DNA from: a virus
Taxonomy: Duplodnaviria; Heunggongvirae; Uroviricota; Caudoviricetes
IMG/VR virus record: IMGVR_UViG_2706794662_000014
Direction: 5' to 3' (one strand)
Length of the DNA stretch: 9,660 bases
The number at the start of each line of letters is the position of its first letter. The first letter of the stretch is position 1. Below the pieces are notes generated by a model that did not search any database, was not told the DNA's origin, and saw nothing but the letters and a program-made list of their open reading frames with translations. Positions 1,319 through 9,403 of the stretch are shown piece by piece. The translations under genes and the position numbers were made by a program.

Positions 1319-3147
1319 GCAATCATCACTCCATAGAAACCAGCGATAGTTCTCTCAATAATCCGTCTGTGGACGCCAGCATCAATTAACGATTGAATCT
1401 CCATCACCTGCTCCAGAGAAGGCAACGGGATTGAATTCAATTCATAGGCCGAAACAGCAACACTTCCGCTTATACACCTGAACGCCCGATCGACAACATG
1501 CGAATTAAGTAGCATATCAATAACATCAGGGCGAACCGCAGAGAACAATCCGTTTGAATATACAATATTAATATGGTTTTCAACTACTACGCCACCAGTT
1601 TCATCTATAAATCCCTGAGGTAAAATTGCCGCTAAAATCCTTCTGTCCTGTTCCTTCGATGTTGTCCGCTGAACAAGCACACATTCAGATTTTGTCACAA
1701 GGAAACCCTGTTGTGGGGTTATATCGATATAGGGAACATGATTTTTTCTGTCTGCACTAAAACGAAAACCAGCTGAAGTTATTGATTCCGCCCAGACTAA
1801 TGGGTAGCTATTTTTTCCTTTCGTCGTACGCAACTGCGACTTAAATCGATTCCAGACTAACTGACCTGTAGAGACTGAGTATCCCAGATCAGCTAAACGC
1901 GTAGACATCTGTTTTAATACATTAAGAAAACAGGCATCATCTTTAACGCGTGGCAAAAGCCACGTTGCTCCACCTTTTTCTATATCAACATTACCTATTT
2001 TCTCAATTTTTGCTTTGTTCAACCCCTTAGGGACAAGTGAGGATACCTGGGCCCGAACTTTATGTTCTCCCGCCTTGAATGCTGTCAACATTGTTTCCTG
2101 GAGAACATCGTCAAAGACCCCATCCCTGTCAGTGACGAAATCAAGGGCATACGGAGTAGTTTTTTCGGTCAAAAGGGTTCGCAGCGCGGTGAAATACTGC
2201 CCACCAAGAAAAGAAGTTGGCGTAAGAAATGCAATAACTCCTGTTTTCTCTTTAACCATGCGAACAGCTAAGTCGGTGAACAATCCATATAGATTTGCAT
2301 GACCAAATAACGAACGAGAATATTTTTCTCTCGTTTTAATATCGAGAGTGACACGTCCGTAAGGCGGATTCCCTACCACAAGATCATAACCAGAAAATTT
2401 ATCTTGCTGAAGCGCATCAGCAACAATAATTGTATCTTCAGGCAATCTACGTTTTACCTTTACACATAGTGGCATTAGTACAGATTCGAGCAATACCAAA
2501 CTCATCCAAGCCGCAAATGGATCGATTTCTATCCCCTTTAAACGACGACTGATTCTCCTCAACATCCATTCAGGGGAAGACCCCTTGTCTTTTTTTAACA
2601 TTCGAATGGCTACTGGTGCCAAAAATGCACCGCCACCACACGCAGGATCAATAACCGATGCATGAGAAAAATCAACACCAGACTTTTCAGCCAGGTCCAA
2701 GAGACGCGCTACCAAAGGTGGGGGGGTATAGTAAGCCCCCAATTCCGAACGGTAAGCGGATGGCAGCATTACCGTATAAATTGACCCAATCAGATATCCA
2801 GCGTCCTCCGCCGGAAATTGAGCAATAAGCTCACCTGTTCGTTCAGCGAGCTCGCGTGCATCACATGGAATGTCTTCTATGTAAACAGTGTGCGGTACTG
2901 CCCTCATTTTAATGCTGCTTTTTTGCTTTTTTGCAAGGGTATCCCAATATGCAGCTACGATGCTGAAGCAGTATGAGCGGGCATGCATCAACCTTGACTG
3001 CCCGGTTTTGTAATTGCCCGCATAACCTTTGGCCATGGCTTTACAAGTTTGATATCTTTCCAGATTAGAAAACTCATTATCTGTAAAAAAATCAAAATGT
3101 TGCACATTCATAATGTAAAATCCTAATGTATCAAACATGCGGGCCAT
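1315..3147 (-). CDS. N6-adenine (amino) DNA methyltransferase, gamma class, with large C-terminal target-recognition region
   Basis: 610-codon ORF. Motif X GAYYTPPPLV, motif I (AdoMet) VIDPACGGGAFL, motif IV VGNPPYG, in gamma-class order. About 330 aa follow motif IV. Start uncertain (ATG at 3147, 3138 or 3111). Confidence 0.85.
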   Translation of the reverse strand: MARMFDTLGFYIMNVQHFDFFTDNEFSNLERYQTCKAMAKGYAGNYKTGQSRLMHARSYCFSIVAAYWDTLAKKQKSSIKMRAVPHTVYIEDIPCDARELAERTGELIAQFPAEDAGYLIGSIYTVMLPSAYRSELGAYYTPPPLVARLLDLAEKSGVDFSHASVIDPACGGGAFLAPVAIRMLKKDKGSSPEWMLRRISRRLKGIEIDPFAAWMSLVLLESVLMPLCVKVKRRLPEDTIIVADALQQDKFSGYDLVVGNPPYGRVTLDIKTREKYSRSLFGHANLYGLFTDLAVRMVKEKTGVIAFLTPTSFLGGQYFTALRTLLTEKTTPYALDFVTDRDGVFDDVLQETMLTAFKAGEHKVRAQVSSLVPKGLNKAKIEKIGNVDIEKGGATWLLPRVKDDACFLNVLKQMSTRLADLGYSVSTGQLVWNRFKSQLRTTKGKNSYPLVWAESITSAGFRFSADRKNHVPYIDITPQQGFLVTKSECVLVQRTTSKEQDRRILAAILPQGFIDETGGVVVENHINIVYSNGLFSAVRPDVIDMLLNSHVVDRAFRCISGSVAVSAYELNSIPLPSLEQVMEIQSLIDAGVHRRIIERTIAGFYGVMIA

Positions 3148-3361: not shown

Positions 3362-3718
3362 TTATTCGGGGCTATATTTTGTCACCCTGCGTATCCGCGC
3401 TTTCGCATTACGCTCAATCTGGATTAGCTTTTCTATATTTTTTCGCCTTTCCCGCTCCTCCTGGCGCAAGAGCCTTACATCATCTGCCAGTCTGGTTTCT
3501 CTTTTCGCCACAGAGAGCATCCAGTCAAATGGCTCCACAACTGCACCGCAAATTTTACAGCGGACCTGACGCTCTTTTTCGTCAACCCGGACAGAAGCGT
3601 GATGGCAATATGGTCTTTCCGATGGCTCATAAAGAAAATTAACCTGATTACGAGGGTTATCCTCTTTTACCGGAAATAAAACAATATTGCTTAACTCATC
3701 TTCTGGTTTTATTTCCAT
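3362..3718 (-). CDS. Hypothetical prophage protein with Cys-rich zinc-ribbon-like motif and basic coiled-coil tail
   Basis: ORF track 3362..3775 starts at a non-ATG codon. Internal ATG at 3718 (MEIKPEDE...) has a strong RBS AGGAGAGGAG 5-8 nt upstream. Motif C-H-H x15 C-K-I-C; C-terminus rich in R/E/K. TAA stop at 3362-3364. Confidence 0.55.
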   Translation of the reverse strand: MEIKPEDELSNIVLFPVKEDNPRNQVNFLYEPSERPYCHHASVRVDEKERQVRCKICGAVVEPFDWMLSVAKRETRLADDVRLLRQEERERRKNIEKLIQIERNAKARIRRVTKYSPE

Positions 3719-3775
3719 GCTCCTCTCCTTTGATGCGAATGCCAGCGGTAATTGAAGCCTGATAGCTAATTTCAC

Positions 3776-4198
3776 TCACAGTACCGCCTCCTGAAAATCA
3801 CCCTGATAGAAAGCCGGTACACGCTGCATAACTTCACTCTTCCGGCACTCGCGACAGATTATGTTCTGATGTCTGTCGTAGCGGCGTATTTCTCCGTCTG
3901 GTAATGACCAGATAAGGTCCGGATCAACCACAGATGGTTTCTTCAGCTTTGCCCTCGAGAGTTTTTTGCGGGCGTTTTGCCAGTCCTTACGAGCCTGTTC
4001 AGACGGGAATAACCCGTAGCCAGAGTTGTATACATCCCCACTGGCAACCAGCTCTCTGGCGAGAACGCTTATTAAATATCTTGTCGCCCCGGTTTTAGCT
4101 TCCAGTTGTCGTAACGTCTCGCGCCCACTCTGGCGTACGAGTTCAACAACCTGCCCCTTAATTTTTTCCCGCTCTTCCTGTGTAAATACTTTTGCCAT
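3776..4198 (-). CDS. Hypothetical prophage protein, winged-helix-like N-terminus plus CxxC
   Basis: ORF track starts at TTG 4213; ATG at 4198 (MAKVFTQEE...) is the first ATG. HTH-like segment ETLRQLEAKTGATRYLISVLARELV; C-terminal ICRECRK. No family recognised. Confidence 0.5.
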   Translation of the reverse strand: MAKVFTQEEREKIKGQVVELVRQSGRETLRQLEAKTGATRYLISVLARELVASGDVYNSGYGLFPSEQARKDWQNARKKLSRAKLKKPSVVDPDLIWSLPDGEIRRYDRHQNIICRECRKSEVMQRVPAFYQGDFQEAVL

Positions 4199-4213
4199 AA
4201 GCGCCCCCGGCAA

Positions 4214-4939
4214 TCACTTTTCCGACACAATACGACCGGAGGAATCGACAATCTGTCGAACAATATCCCGGTGCTTGTTCAGCTCCCGCAACGCGGCGCA
4301 GACACGCTCCCACTTCTGGACATGACTTTTCGCCCGACGCAGTTCGCGGTTTGCCATATGCAGCGATGGTAAAACCAGGTCATCCGCTTGCGTTTCGGTG
4401 AACGATGGCAACGACTGCACAATGTCCGCCACAGTTTCTGTTTTAATTTCTTCCTGTGTTGCAGCTTCCTGTACCGGTAACGCAACACCTGCTGGCTGAG
4501 GAAAGACTTTACCATCCGTTTCCGCTATGGATGCGGCTTTCGGCTCTGCCGGTAAATCAGCGCCCGGTATGCAGTACCGAAATTTACCGCCCTGATTCAC
4601 GCGAATCAGACGCCCTTTGCTGATTGCCATGGCCAGCGATGAATTCGCCCGGCGGGAGGTAATCCCGAACATCAGTGCCAGCTCATCCGCCGTTTGTGGG
4701 CCATGTTGTTCAATCGCCTCAGTCAGCATTTGCGCTGTCACTTTCGGTACCGGTGACACTGGTTCACTTTCACCAGCCTGAATCAGCCACCACATCGAAC
4801 CCTTGTTATCCGCTTCACCACGGCGCTTCAGTTTCCACAGTTCGTTGACCGCATCTTCACGGCTGATTCCAAGGCGGGACGCCACCACATGTGAAGAGGC
4901 TCTTTTCAGTGCTTTCAGTGCGTCAAATACAGTTTCCAT
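4214..4939 (-). CDS. Hypothetical prophage protein with two winged-helix-like repeats
   Basis: ORF track starts at TTG 4957; ATG at 4939 (METVFDALK...) has GGAGG 8 nt upstream (plus 4948-4952). Two similar HTH-like segments ([25 protein letters not shown] and [28 protein letters not shown]). TGA stop at 4214-4216. Confidence 0.55.
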
Positions 4940-4960: not shown

Positions 4961-5472
4961 TTACTTCACAACTCCCGGAAAGCTGACATTTGAACGCCAG
5001 CTATCCCAGTTAAACGTCACCCACCGACAACCGTTCATGGTCATGCGGTCCATAATCCTCTCACCAAGAAGCGTGCTCATTGCGGCATGATTCAGGTTTG
5101 TTAACATCCCGACACTGCACAGTGATGCTGTCCGGCGATCAATTATCTGGTGCAATACCACCTGCTCGTTTTTCGTCTCCCGCTGAATGCCTATTTCATC
5201 CAGGACCAGCAAATCAACCCCGCAAAGCTCCTGTAAAAATTTTTCACCGGATTTGCCGTTGTCGTAGCTGTCATGCAACACGCTCATGACATCAGACTCG
5301 GTGACGATAATCACGCTGCGCCCCTTCGCCATCAGCCGGTTACCCATCGCCGCTGCAAGGTGATTTTTCCCGGTGCCGGTTTTACCGCTGAACACAAAAT
5401 TCGTGCACCCGGTCATCAGTTCGTCAGCTATGGATTTGGCCTGGCTCAGCGCGTATTTTTGCCCGTCGTTCT
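4961..5472 (-). CDS. DnaC/IstB-like AAA+ helicase loader (phage P-position replication protein), 5' end lost in N gap
   Basis: Walker A GKTGTGKNHLAAA, Walker B LLVLDEIG, sensor-like TNLN. Lies downstream of the O-like gene. ORF-track residues upstream of the N run are artefactual. Confidence 0.8.
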
Positions 5473-5745
5473 GCACCTGATAANNNNNNNNNNNNNNNNN
5501 NNNNNNNNNNNNNNNNNNNNNNNNNNNNNNNNNNNNNNNNNNNNNNNNNNNNNNNNNNNNNNNNNNNNNNNNNNNNNNNNNNNNNNNNNNNNNNNNNNNN
5601 NNNNNNNNNNNNNNNNNNNNNNNNNNNNNNNNNNNNNNNNNNNNNNNNNNNNNNNNNNNNNNNNNNNNNNNNNNNNNNNNNNNNNNNNNNNNNNNNNNNN
5701 NNNNNNNNNNNNNNNNNNNNNNNNNNNNNNNNNNNNNNNNNNNNN
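5473..5745. other. Run of 273 N (assembly gap or masked sequence)
   Basis: Literal n characters in the sequence. It removes the 3' end of the O-like gene and the 5' end of the DnaC-like gene. Confidence 0.99.
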
Positions 5746-6793: not shown

Positions 6794-7219
6794 TCAATGT
6801 ACTGCCACAGCATTTCCTGCCGGGCCACCACGGTTCATCTGATTGAAACCGGCGATTGCCACTGCGACAAAATCATCAGCGTCTCTCACCAGTCGTTCAT
6901 GCGTCTCCACCAGTTCCCGAAAATAAGCTGAACTGTGGCTGCGCATTCGAGCCACCAGCGGAGGTGGCATTGCCCTTTCGATCGCAGGTAACAACGCCTG
7001 AATTTTTTCAACAGCGTCAGGGGTGTCTTTATCCAGCCAACGGAAAATCTTTTGGGTGTTGAGATAAAGCGTGTTGTGCTTGCTGTCGTTATGCAGAACC
7101 GGAAACGTCATTCCCAGTTCGAAATAAACCCTGGTTATTTCAGCTGCCGGAACTTTTTCACCGTCCGGATGCGCCCAGGCTTTCATCGCCATGCGGATGT
7201 GTTCATGCTTGATTTTCAT
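6794..7219 (-). CDS. cII-position protein, possibly YdaT-like
   Basis: 141-codon ORF, ATG 7219-7217 overlapping the Cro-like stop (ATGA). Sits between cro-like and O-like genes. YdaT assignment is from synteny and vague recall only. Confidence 0.6.
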   Translation of the reverse strand: MKIKHEHIRMAMKAWAHPDGEKVPAAEITRVYFELGMTFPVLHNDSKHNTLYLNTQKIFRWLDKDTPDAVEKIQALLPAIERAMPPPLVARMRSHSSAYFRELVETHERLVRDADDFVAVAIAGFNQMNRGGPAGNAVAVH

Positions 7220-7479
7220 GAATCAACCCCCGCCGATGGTTGTGTGTTAGCCTGAAACTCAGCAGGCAAGCCGTCAGTTGGGTTGGGGTAGGTTTTACTG
7301 TCAATCTCATGTGGGGTCACCACCCATCCCGTTGCTTCACACCAACGTAATATTTTTTCTCCTGTAAGTTTTGCACGCCCCGTTATAACGTGGCTGACCA
7401 TCCCTTGGGATGCGCCAACAATCTCAGCAAATGAACTCTGGGTTATATGAAAATGATGCAAATATTCTCCAAGATTCAT
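7216..7479 (-). CDS. Cro-like HTH transcriptional regulator
   Basis: ORF track starts at TTG 7506; first ATG at 7479 (MNLGEYLHH...). HTH segment SSFAEIVGASQGMVSHVITGRAKL. Divergent from the repressor gene, downstream of the PR-like promoter. Confidence 0.7.
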   Translation of the reverse strand: MNLGEYLHHFHITQSSFAEIVGASQGMVSHVITGRAKLTGEKILRWCEATGWVVTPHEIDSKTYPNPTDGLPAEFQANTQPSAGVDS

Positions 7480-7513
7480 AATCCGCCCTATGTGATGTGT
7501 TACCAATGCATAA

Positions 7514-7555: not shown

Positions 7556-7583
7556 TCAAAGTGATTAGCAATCTTATTAGAAT
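7555..7583 (+). promoter_or_regulatory. PRM-like promoter for the repressor gene, possibly giving a leaderless transcript
   Basis: -35 TTCAAA (7555-7560), 17-nt spacer, -10 TAGAAT (7578-7583); predicted start ~7590, at the ATG (7591). No clear Shine-Dalgarno before ATG 7591. Confidence 0.4.
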
Positions 7584-7590
7584 TGGATGT

Positions 7591-8091
7591 ATGAAAAGAA
7601 AATCATTGTCAGACACCGACCTCAACGCCGCCAGAAGACTGAAAGAAATCTGGATGGCAAAGAAATCTCAGTTGGGATTGACTCAGGAACGTGCGGCGGA
7701 AATTATGGGGTTTTCAACACAAGGGGCGGTAAGTCACTACCTAAATGGTCAAACCCCACTAAACCTTGAGGCTGTTCTAAAGTTTGCTGGCTTACTGAAA
7801 GTTCCCCCTGAGTCAATCAGGCCAGACATGGTAGATTTGCTGCAAATTGCAAGGATGTATTGTCGAGAACCACAGCAAGATAACATAGTCGCATTACCAG
7901 CAGACACAGAACAAACAGAGGATGAACTACCGTTTGCCGTAGAGCCGATGGAACGAGATTTAATCCATACGTTCAGAGCTTTTCCGAAAGAAGATCAAGA
8001 ACACATGCTTCAGGAGATGAAAGATAAAAAAGAATCAATGGATCGTACGGTTGCGCGGTGGTTAGCTGCACAAAAAGGCCGTCGCGCCTAA
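7591..8091 (+). CDS. Prophage repressor, lambda cI N-terminal-domain-like HTH, no S24/LexA-type cleavage domain; possibly PaaR2-like regulator of the downstream toxin-antitoxin pair
   Basis: ATG 7591 (MKRKSLSDTDLNAARRLKEIW...) preferred over ORF-track GTG 7561. First ~80 aa parallel lambda cI as I recall it ([35 protein letters not shown] vs LSDTDLNAARRLKEIWMAKKSQLGLTQERAAEIMG). Total 166 aa; C-terminal half acidic with no Ser/Lys peptidase motifs. Confidence 0.75.
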   Translation: MKRKSLSDTDLNAARRLKEIWMAKKSQLGLTQERAAEIMGFSTQGAVSHYLNGQTPLNLEAVLKFAGLLKVPPESIRPDMVDLLQIARMYCREPQQDNIVALPADTEQTEDELPFAVEPMERDLIHTFRAFPKEDQEHMLQEMKDKKESMDRTVARWLAAQKGRRA

Positions 8092-8110: not shown

Positions 8111-8305
8111 ATGAGTACAGTCCTTTCCCCAATGGTTTCAGAATTTGAGACAGTTGAGCAAGAAAATAGTTACAACGAATGGCTGCGGGCCAAAGTAGCA
8201 GCAAGCCTCGCGGATCCCCGCCCGGCGATTCCGCATGATGAGGTAATGGCGGAAATGGAACAAATTATTGCCCAAATTGCTGCTGCAACTCACAGAGGTG
8301 AATAA
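8111..8305 (+). CDS. paaA2: Type II antitoxin, PaaA2-like, partner of ParE-family toxin
   Basis: 64-codon ORF, RBS AGAGGAG (8095-8101) 9 nt before ATG, TAA stop overlapping the toxin ATG (TAATG at 8302-8307). Sequence LSPMVSEFETVEQENSYNEWLRAKVAASLADPRPAIPHDEV matches my recollection of PaaA2 from E. coli O157:H7; symbol is from memory. Confidence 0.7.
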   Translation: MSTVLSPMVSEFETVEQENSYNEWLRAKVAASLADPRPAIPHDEVMAEMEQIIAQIAAATHRGE

Positions 8306-8595
8306 TGTTACCCGTTTTATGGCTACCATCTGCTCGTGATGATTTGCGCCAGATCGTAGCCTACATAGCTAAAGAAAATCCCGCGGCAGCACGCAGAATG
8401 AAAATTCGAATTGAAACATCCGTTTTGCCGCTCACAGAGCATCCTTACCTGTATCCTCCAAGCGAGCGAGTTCTTGGTCTTCGTGAAATTGTAACTCATC
8501 CTAACTACATCATCCTTTACCGAGTAACAGCATCAAGCATAGAAGTAGTAAATATTGTGCATTCTCGAAGACAGTATCCAGGCAAAAACAGTTAA
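8305..8595 (+). CDS. parE: ParE/RelE-superfamily toxin (ParE2-like)
   Basis: 96 codons. Typical ParE pattern: MLPVLWLPSARDDLRQIVAYIA...PYLYPPSERVLGLREIVTHPNYIILYRV...IEVVNIVHSRR. Translationally coupled to the upstream antitoxin. Confidence 0.85.
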   Translation: MLPVLWLPSARDDLRQIVAYIAKENPAAARRMKIRIETSVLPLTEHPYLYPPSERVLGLREIVTHPNYIILYRVTASSIEVVNIVHSRRQYPGKNS

Positions 8596-8873: not shown

Positions 8874-9026
8874 ATGGATACTATCGATCTTGGCAACAAC
8901 GAATCTCTGGTGTGCGGCGTGTTCCCTAACCAGGATGGAACGTTTACCGCCATGACGTATACCAAAAGCAAAACGTTTAAAACCGAATCTGGCGCGCGTT
9001 GCTGGTTAGCCAGAAACACTGACTGA
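8874..9026 (+). CDS. Small hypothetical protein (50 aa), first gene after the PL-like promoter
   Basis: ATG 8874 with GAGG (8865-8868) 5 nt upstream is preferred over the ORF-track ATG 8820, which has no RBS. TGA stop overlaps the next start (TGATG). One Cys pair, no recognisable motif. Confidence 0.45.
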   Translation: MDTIDLGNNESLVCGVFPNQDGTFTAMTYTKSKTFKTESGARCWLARNTD

Positions 9027-9403
9027 TGAGGCTGACGATGGAATTTAAAGATTTACCGTCTGATGTACAGAAAACAGCAGCTCATACATTGCATTCTGTG
9101 CTGCGAGAAATCGGGAAAGATATTGCAAGCGAGCCAGCAAAAGATCTGGCCCGGAAAATCAAGACCGCTTTCGTTGAGCTTTATAATGTTGGCACTGACT
9201 CTGAAACTGTCGAGACCAAGACCGTAAGTTCACCAATATTCTCACTTGAGCCAAGCGTATTATCAGGTGAAATATGCACCGAGATTTCCAGCGAACTGCT
9301 TCCGGTAATACGAGAAGCAATTCGCCGTCGCGGTTTGGATGGAAGTTATGATCATGACGTTCTGCAAGTTCTCAGGACAATGGTGACTTCACTGGGGATT
9401 TGA
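9026..9403 (+). CDS. Hypothetical protein (125 aa; or 121 aa from ATG 9038)
   Basis: ATG 9026 overlaps the upstream stop; alternative ATG 9038 has GAGG (9028-9031) 6 nt upstream. Acidic, helical-looking; not arginine-rich as lambda N would be. Confidence 0.5.
   Translation: MRLTMEFKDLPSDVQKTAAHTLHSVLREIGKDIASEPAKDLARKIKTAFVELYNVGTDSETVETKTVSSPIFSLEPSVLSGEICTEISSELLPVIREAIRRRGLDGSYDHDVLQVLRTMVTSLGI

Follow-up and report, generated by a model that had tools for sequence, protein, structure and literature searches.

Three small genes, here called g1, g2 and g3, lie next to one another in the viral DNA recorded in IMG/VR as IMGVR_UViG_2706794662_000014 (Caudoviricetes), of which a stretch of 9,660 nucleotides (nt) was analysed as a whole (the window). 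The open reading frame (ORF) list and family scans identify the window as the immunity and replication region of a lambdoid prophage of the Rac/Stx type. The three genes are most likely separate delayed-early accessory genes of the ren/nin region, neither a cooperating system nor cargo expressed in the lysogen. They are further members of known, functionally uncharacterised families. An earlier note, made from the DNA letters alone, had reported three tightly packed genes, and the ORF list and sequence confirm their positions and lengths. The note had placed them in no named family, which holds only for g3, the one without a curated family; g1 belongs to DUF1627 (PF07789) and g2 to DUF977 (PF06163) and PHROG 142.

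All three are genuine coding genes under purifying selection and not chance ORFs, because the ratio of nonsynonymous to synonymous substitution rates (dN/dS) was 0.27–0.29 for g1, 0.08–0.29 for g2 and 0.07–0.14 for g3 (homologues 78–95% identical in nucleotides) and alignments across genera were nearly gap-free. A Shine–Dalgarno sequence precedes each gene. g1 begins 21 nt past the stop codon of the DnaC-like loader gene, with the ribosome-binding site GGAGG 7 nt upstream. g2 begins 15 nt past the end of g1, and g3 begins 57 nt past the end of g2, behind the ribosome-binding site AGGAGAGGAG. A mechanical call had extended g3 to 137 amino acids (aa) from GTG 3775; this start was rejected, as homologues in ten genera all start at the 118-aa position.

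The distribution of the genes does not bear out a three-gene block, as the earlier note had framed it. Phage database records with g1, g2 and g3 number 24, 24 and 19; g1 and g2 overlap in 12 of them, g2 and g3 in four, and g1 and g3 in none. Seventy close g3 loci (IMG/VR loci whose upstream sequence extends for 1.3 kb or more) comprised 35 with g2 only, 29 with both g1 and g2, and six with g1 only, and in IMG/VR g3 loci g2 and g3 were often spaced by about 1 kb of other DNA. Fifteen loci from Erwinia, Yersinia, Photorhabdus, Phytobacter and others had g3 but lacked both g1 and g2 over distances of up to 6 kb. Among individual phages, vB_EcoS-813R8 has O, then g2, then g3; PPompW phages have the loader and g1, then unrelated genes; Shigella phage 75/02 Stx has DnaC, g1 and g2 without g3; and Klebsiella phage ST15-VIM1phi2.1 has NinG, g3, YlcG and Q, with a 100-aa Ren-like 'MarR' gene at the ren position. 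Close copies are among the commonest Escherichia coli prophage genes: at megablast stringency they occur in 2,396 (g1, 44%), 4,103 (g2, 76%) and 1,679 (g3, 31%) of 5,426 complete genomes, and 4,283 of these genomes have some part of the three-gene block. There was no consistent co-occurrence; g2–g3, g1–g2, g1 alone and g3 alone all occur, and all partial combinations are common. Because of these combinations and the unequal prevalence, the three genes are not a unit. They assort independently, as mosaic lambdoid accessory genes and not as a co-dependent system.

g1–g3 extend the early-right operon: they share the strand of the replication genes, and the gaps are 15–57 nt. E. coli and phage records place them after 'replication protein P', ydaV or O and ahead of nin-type genes (rusA, ninG, Q). 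A consensus scan found no promoter- or terminator-like site on the g1–g3 strand between positions 3000 and 5100, although weak or non-sigma-70 promoters could escape such a scan, and no Rfam RNA family was found in the window. PADLOC-DB v2 gave no match for g2 or g3, and for g1 only one at E = 0.0099 with no qualifying stretch. Some phages that carry relatives are inducible or functional: Stx2a phages and ArgO145 for g3, and Shigella phage 75/02 Stx and Rac-SA53 for g1 and g2. The suggestion that the genes are cargo (a moron) therefore finds the evidence pointing the other way: same-strand continuation of the operon, no promoter found, no significant PADLOC score and relatives in inducible Stx phages. 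NCBIfam gave no match for g1, g2 or g3, PDB sequence searches with the three gave nothing better than E = 0.35, and a literature search under the family identifiers found no functional study.

g1 matches Pfam DUF1627 at 309.8 bits against a cut-off of 28.1 (E = 3.9e-93), which passes the gathering threshold, with aa 82–236 aligned to model positions 1–155 of 155. It also matches PHROG 630 (E = 1.7e-121), and BLASTP aligned it with YdaW (b1361) of the E. coli K-12 Rac prophage at 57% identity over aa 1–139 (E = 2e-56). Like YdaW, g1 lies directly after the ydaV/DnaC-like loader gene, and homology together with this position makes it a member of the YdaW family. The two winged-helix-like repeats that the earlier note had read from the sequence are present in the AlphaFold2 model as aa 1–55 and 67–125 (Table 1), and PF08279 (HTH_11) is among the precomputed matches in the winged helix 1 part of g1 relatives. 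A linker at aa 131–186, disordered and variable between alleles, separates the winged helices from a conserved C-terminal helix. The C-terminal segment by itself matches PHROGs 29124 and 1888, and the gene as a whole is an intragenic mosaic of allelic segments. The conserved helix probably mediates oligomerisation or partner binding. Foldseek searches of the g1 model against PDB and BFVD returned winged or tandem-winged helices of the ArsR/MarR/TrmB/ScpB kind, generic matches at E ~1e-3, as well as ESCRT-II winged helices. Winged helix 2 was also compared with the g2/Ren winged helix by hhalign (probability 57%, E = 1e-4). The idea that g1 is a duplicated Ren was rejected on this comparison, which covers one winged helix at that probability only.

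YdaW of K-12 is a truncated protein of 186 aa that lacks the conserved C-terminal helix, whereas g1 is the intact form. The Rac ydaW gene (L007:4253-4813) keeps only the two winged helices of the DUF1627 protein. YdaW was also considered as a DUF977 protein and rejected as such, as it aligns to g1 and not to g2. In phage records, 'YdaW family' is the name given to g1-type proteins and 'LygF' that given to g2-type proteins. An overexpression screen returned K-12 ydaW as a 'blocker' of RcaT, the toxin of retron-Sen2 (bioRxiv 10.1101/2020.06.22.160242), and this result is the only functional lead for g1. Phenotypes reported for K-12 ydaW therefore concern a fragment without the conserved C-terminal helix.

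g2 matches Pfam DUF977 end to end (aa 6–141 on model positions 1–134 of 134; 105.7 bits against a cut-off of 22.1, E = 2.6e-30; gathering threshold passed). It also matches PHROG 142, 'Ren-like exclusion protein', at E = 2e-46 over profile positions 1–115 of 116, and lambda Ren (NC_001416, 96 aa) matches the same profile at E = 1.6e-41 over positions 11–110. PHROG 142 is filed under 'moron, auxiliary metabolic gene and host takeover', and g2 homologues in phage records are annotated LygF or 'Ren-like exclusion protein'. No structural difference separates g2 from the Pfam DUF977/'LygF' proteins of Salmonella and E. coli prophages, and 'LygF' is a mere locus name. The C-termini of g2 and lambda Ren have the motif N[IL][IV]x[RK]ECRxSxxMxRVxAxY in common. 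g2 is 44 residues longer than lambda Ren; a basic insertion (ARKKLSRAKLKK...) that separates the winged helix from the C-terminal motif accounts for about 35 of these, and g2 also has an N-terminal extension.

The arrangement is similar as well. Lambda has O–P–ren and the window has O–DnaC–g1–g2, both in the early-right operon after the replication genes, although in the window, unlike in lambda, g1 intervenes between the loader gene and g2. Many prophages have g2 directly after O or DnaC. The earlier note had pointed to this region as one known for anti-defence functions, which agrees with lambda, where ren, the gene that counters Rex exclusion, sits at exactly the position of g2. Ren shields the phage from exclusion and does not exclude others, and lambda ren is dispensable for replication; in 1980 Toothman and Herskowitz reportedly defined the gene genetically by the resistance to Rex exclusion that it confers. 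The PR transcript of lambda carries ren together with O and P, ren was described as 'likely involved in DNA replication', and in a two-hybrid assay the Rex proteins interacted with O and Ren (bioRxiv 10.1101/2021.04.19.439022). Our best guess, by analogy, is that g2 acts in a Ren-like way, either in replication or to counter abortive infection.

The earlier note had also assigned g2 a helix-turn-helix (HTH) segment and a CxxC motif. The first stands: an N-terminal winged HTH is supported by Pfam DUF977, by hhalign and by the literature, in which DUF977 was recognised as a winged helix (PMC2686095). The CxxC motif is present as C115-x2-C118 and retained in five DUF977 sequences, with the first Cys replaced by Phe in lambda Ren; C118 alone is invariant over DUF977, Ren and one Klebsiella Ren-like protein. 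A four-ligand zinc site in the g2 monomer appears unlikely from these alignments, because C115 is replaced by Phe in Ren and there are no further ligands, and the motif was rejected as a zinc site. As a separate observation, L009:2890-4423 and about 25 IMG/VR loci (e.g. L052, L063, L084) have an O-like initiator gene followed by g2 within about 190 nt, and in these loci no DnaC/P-type helicase loader gene was detected between the two.

g3 matches PHROG 1621 (E = 1.1e-54), its only family label; library scans gave it no Pfam, NCBIfam, PADLOC or PDB relative. The C-x15-CxxC motif and basic tail described in the earlier note were confirmed and refined. The ribbon pattern is C38-x-H40-x13-C54-x2-C57, and a long basic helix follows at aa 63–115. 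The three Cys are invariant in both alignments (34 closer and 48 distant sequences). H40 is likewise invariant among the closer sequences, and its conservation among the distant ones is at least 90%. In the AlphaFold2 model, g3 would thus have the make-up of a generic zinc ribbon, four conserved ligands on two predicted beta-hairpin knuckles. The match to the TFIIB-type zinc ribbon Zn_Ribbon_TF (PF08271) was below the cut-off of 29 at 21.1 bits (E = 2e-4), and only five of the 48 distant family members reached PF08271 at E <= 0.01. Zinc-ribbon regulators (PF08271; MqsA/YgiT-type, DksA/TraR-type) likewise have a beta-hairpin ribbon and an adjoining long helix. g3 differs from them in its ligand set, which is C-H-C-C and not C4, and its order of ribbon then helix is the reverse of that in DksA/TraR. 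The long basic helix probably forms a coiled-coil dimer. Because the helix is nearly invariant across genera, its sequence suggests a single conserved partner for g3.

The g3 family is large and undescribed in curated libraries. At least 1,654 representative clusters, at 50% identity, match g3 at E <= 1e-3 in a profile search of 1.84 billion representatives, and homologues come from ten Enterobacterales genera (Escherichia, Shigella, Salmonella, Klebsiella, Kluyvera, Yokenella, Erwinia, Serratia, Pluralibacter and Yersinia). The features that the 48 distant members have in common are the ribbon, an NVVxFP-like peptide at the N-terminus and a helix ending in 'ERNAKARIR'; none of these members belongs to a Pfam family. 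A profile of these distant relatives matched only coiled-coil noise in the PDB, fold searches with g3 returned only generic coiled-coil matches, and neither profile nor fold search linked g3 to a characterised protein.

A g3-family gene lies immediately 3' of an ead/Ea22-like gene in 21 of 110 g3 loci, as in ArgO145 (L011:2989-4357) and Tyrion (L005:4022-5297). The examples include Stx phage 933W (L113:2295-2765), which has a distant g3 copy beside Ea22 in its early-left (exo-xis) region, and ORFs that apparently fuse an Ea22-like part in frame to g3. Together, these arrangements hint at a functional link between g3 and the Ea22/exo-xis module. The exo-xis region has been implicated in lysis–lysogeny control. 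On the other side, as in most E. coli prophages, the next gene after g3 is a small DUF7167 gene in 63 of the 110 loci (e.g. L001:7711-7893), which encodes an acidic protein of 60 aa and precedes a 58-aa hypothetical gene. In the window, the restriction–modification pair occupies the place of the DUF7167 gene.

As three separate delayed-early genes, g1–g3 would in lytic growth be transcribed from the early-right promoter together with the replication genes, and each product may bind DNA or a protein partner at the replicating phage genome. In g1, two winged helices would be tethered through the disordered linker to the conserved helix. g2 would be a Ren-like, replication-associated winged-helix protein that contacts Rex-type abortive-infection proteins. 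It could thereby let the replicating phage escape exclusion, such that Rex-like abortive infection is either not triggered or not lethal. g1 may play a comparable role against a toxin or a defence system.

Several points weigh against this reading. BLASTP similarity between g2 and Ren is confined to the 20-residue C-terminal motif, their MAFFT alignment has about 30% identity with large gaps, and lambda Ren has no match to the Pfam DUF977 model at E <= 0.1. Because PHROG 142 is common to both while BLASTP finds the motif only and Ren misses DUF977, the kinship is best described as apparently real at the profile level but distant, with g2 as an extended Ren relative at the ren position. The ydaW screen result was obtained with a truncated, overexpressed protein and is at screen level. 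Fold searches were generic, returning winged helices and coiled coils that do not discriminate among a transcription factor, a replication accessory and an anti-defence protein. For all three proteins of the window, the functional part is inferred from architecture and context. Finally, a simple consensus scan may miss weak or non-sigma-70 promoters, from which the genes might be expressed in the lysogen.

The alternative that survives best, although it is unlikely, is that g1 and g2 regulate transcription sequence-specifically during phage development, acting for example on the lysis–lysogeny decision or on late-gene timing, with g3 as a zinc-finger co-regulator. The nearest folds of g1 are the winged helices of ArsR/MarR/TrmB repressors, lambda Ren and g1 match 'MarR family' and 'transcriptional regulator' PHROGs, and one list of predicted E. 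coli transcription factors includes YdaW (PMC9308461). The sub-threshold TFIIB ribbon match and basic helix of g3, and its distant relative beside Ea22 in 933W, fit as well. However, DNA binding by g1–g3 is only putative, and winged helices are equally common in protein binding, with ScpB and ESCRT-II both matched here. No operator-like repeats or cognate promoters were identified in the consensus scan, and free reassortment with different immunity and replication modules speaks against a co-evolved regulator–operator pair.

It is also improbable that g1–g3 are strict replication accessories that assemble or remodel O, the helicase loader and DnaB at the phage origin, with g1 as a tandem-winged-helix adaptor, g2/Ren as a partner of O and no counter-defence function. 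Such a role would fit the position of the genes, which in every E. coli and Shigella locus examined come right after those for the initiator and the loader. It would also fit the tandem winged helix of g1, which is like that of ScpB and weakly like 'replisome organizer' models, and the grouping of Ren with O among the Rex-interacting proteins regarded as replication proteins. Nevertheless, recombination freely pairs g1 and g2 alleles with different alleles of O and DnaC, and many prophages show either O–g2 without g1 or loader–g1 without g2, so g1 and g2 cannot be obligatory co-adapted replisome parts. Furthermore, lambda replicates without ren, and outside Escherichia g3 lies far from the replication genes, as in the ninG–g3–Q order of Klebsiella phage ST15-VIM1phi2.1.

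We give similarly little credence to a further proposal, which centres on g3. Here g3 would represent a large phage protein family, absent from curated libraries, whose target is a single, highly conserved component of host or phage; it might, for instance, inhibit a host defence or DNA-transaction protein. The stretch downstream of the replication genes would then be a counter-defence hotspot that includes g1 and g2.

Prophage accessory regions frequently carry defence genes. Nonetheless, the reading least compatible with the data, and a very unlikely one, is that g1–g3 form a single defence or exclusion cassette (moron), expressed in the lysogen to protect the host from other phages. In its favour, the restriction–modification pair next to them is a bona fide defence moron, a PaaA2–ParE toxin–antitoxin pair lies in the immunity region and PHROG labels the g2 family an 'exclusion protein' of the moron category. 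Against it, the genes assort independently at unequal prevalence, have no significant PADLOC model match (best E = 0.0099), show no promoter-like site and only tight gaps to the replication genes, occupy the ren/nin position within the lytic early-right operon, and include a relative of Ren, which guards the phage against exclusion and is not an excluder.

The preferred reading, three separate delayed-early accessory genes, assigns the window little significance on its own, as these are common prophage genes and not a new three-gene cargo system. Its value is partly corrective: the block is not a system, the restriction–modification pair is a true insertion, and K-12 YdaW is a truncated DUF1627 protein. 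The earlier note had named confident homology of all three genes to lambdoid proteins with established roles as what would refute its proposal; such homology was found in part for g2, which is Ren-like, and not for g1 or g3. Because DUF977 is tied to lambda Ren, DUF977 proteins become candidates for acting against Rex-like abortive-infection systems. Knowledge of what such abundant early genes do would close a real gap in the biology of lambdoid phages; the window adds no special evidence on this point.

Table 1. Features of the window, with the genes under study and their parts first and the neighbouring genes after them
Feature	Position	Strand	Description or basis
g1, 241 aa	4214–4939 (ATG 4939, stop 4214–4216)	minus	DUF1627/YdaW family: two winged helices, disordered linker, C-terminal helix
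g1 winged helix 1, aa 1–55	4775–4939	minus	AlphaFold2 helices aa 4–11, 16–23, 27–39; predicted local distance difference test (pLDDT) ~80–86
g1 winged helix 2, aa 67–125	4565–4741	minus	AlphaFold2 helices aa 69–79, 84–91, 95–107 and beta-hairpin aa 112–123; pLDDT 84–89
g1 conserved C-terminal helix, aa 190–240	4220–4372	minus	Near-invariant in mosaic alleles; modelled helix aa 193–240
g2, 140 aa	3776–4198 (ATG 4198, stop 3776–3778)	minus	DUF977/'LygF'/Ren-like
g2 C-terminal motif common with lambda Ren, aa 112–131 (NIICRECRKSEVMQRVPAFY)	3806–3865	minus	BLASTP, 10/20 identical, E = 1e-5
g3, 118 aa	3362–3718 (ATG 3718, stop 3362–3364)	minus	Predicted zinc ribbon and long helix; PHROG 1621
g3 predicted zinc ribbon, aa 36–62 (C38, H40, C54, C57)	3533–3613	minus	Conservation and modelled beta-hairpins aa 43–46, 51–54, 60–61
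g3 long basic helix, aa 63–115 (...LRxEExxRRxNIEKLIQIERNAKARIR)	3374–3532	minus	Single helix in AlphaFold2 model, pLDDT > 90
O-like initiator, then DnaC/YdaV-like helicase loader	loader ends at 4961	minus	Early-right operon
DnaC/YdaV-like helicase loader, C-terminal part	4961–5483	minus	NCBIfam PRK12377 and DnaC PRK07952 matches
YdaT-family protein at cII position	6794–7219	minus	PF06254 'toxin YdaT', E = 5e-9
Cro-like HTH protein	7216–7506	minus	First gene of early-right operon
cI-like repressor	7561–8091	plus	ORF list and family scans
PaaA2-type antitoxin (64 aa) and ParE-family toxin (96 aa)	8111–8595	plus	PF21217, E = 3e-23; PF05016, E = 1.8e-17
Two ORFs, 68 aa and 125 aa	8820–9026 and 9026–9403	plus	3' of toxin–antitoxin pair, towards early-left operon
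Eco57I/N6-adenine-type methyltransferase, 610 aa	1315–3147	minus	Pfam; PADLOC MTase_II, E = 1.8e-300
BsuBI/PstI-family endonuclease	236–1318	minus	Pfam and PADLOC

The gene at the cII position of the window is of the YdaT family, as in Rac and unlike lambda-type CII. The PaaA2–ParE pair is probably expressed in the lysogen, because it shares its strand with the cI-like repressor gene and lies directly 3' of it. At 5484–5745, a run of 262 N masks the junction between the O-like initiator and DnaC-like loader genes; it artificially lengthens both ORFs with X residues, and their true ends are unreadable. The order on the minus strand is O-like initiator, DnaC-like loader, g1, g2, g3, a 214-nt gap that ends at the methyltransferase start (3147), methyltransferase and endonuclease.

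The restriction–modification pair is a true, rare and recent insertion in the nin region after g3, because it follows g3 in only four of the 70 close loci, all with g3 99–100% identical. Its G+C content is 0.40–0.45, against 0.53 for g1, and the 214-nt gap upstream of it contains no clear sigma-70 promoter. The nearest protein relatives of the window are from Shigella sonnei, where g1 is 99–100% identical, and one IMG/VR contig (L036) carries O, DnaC, g1, g2, g3 and the restriction–modification pair, all 100% identical.

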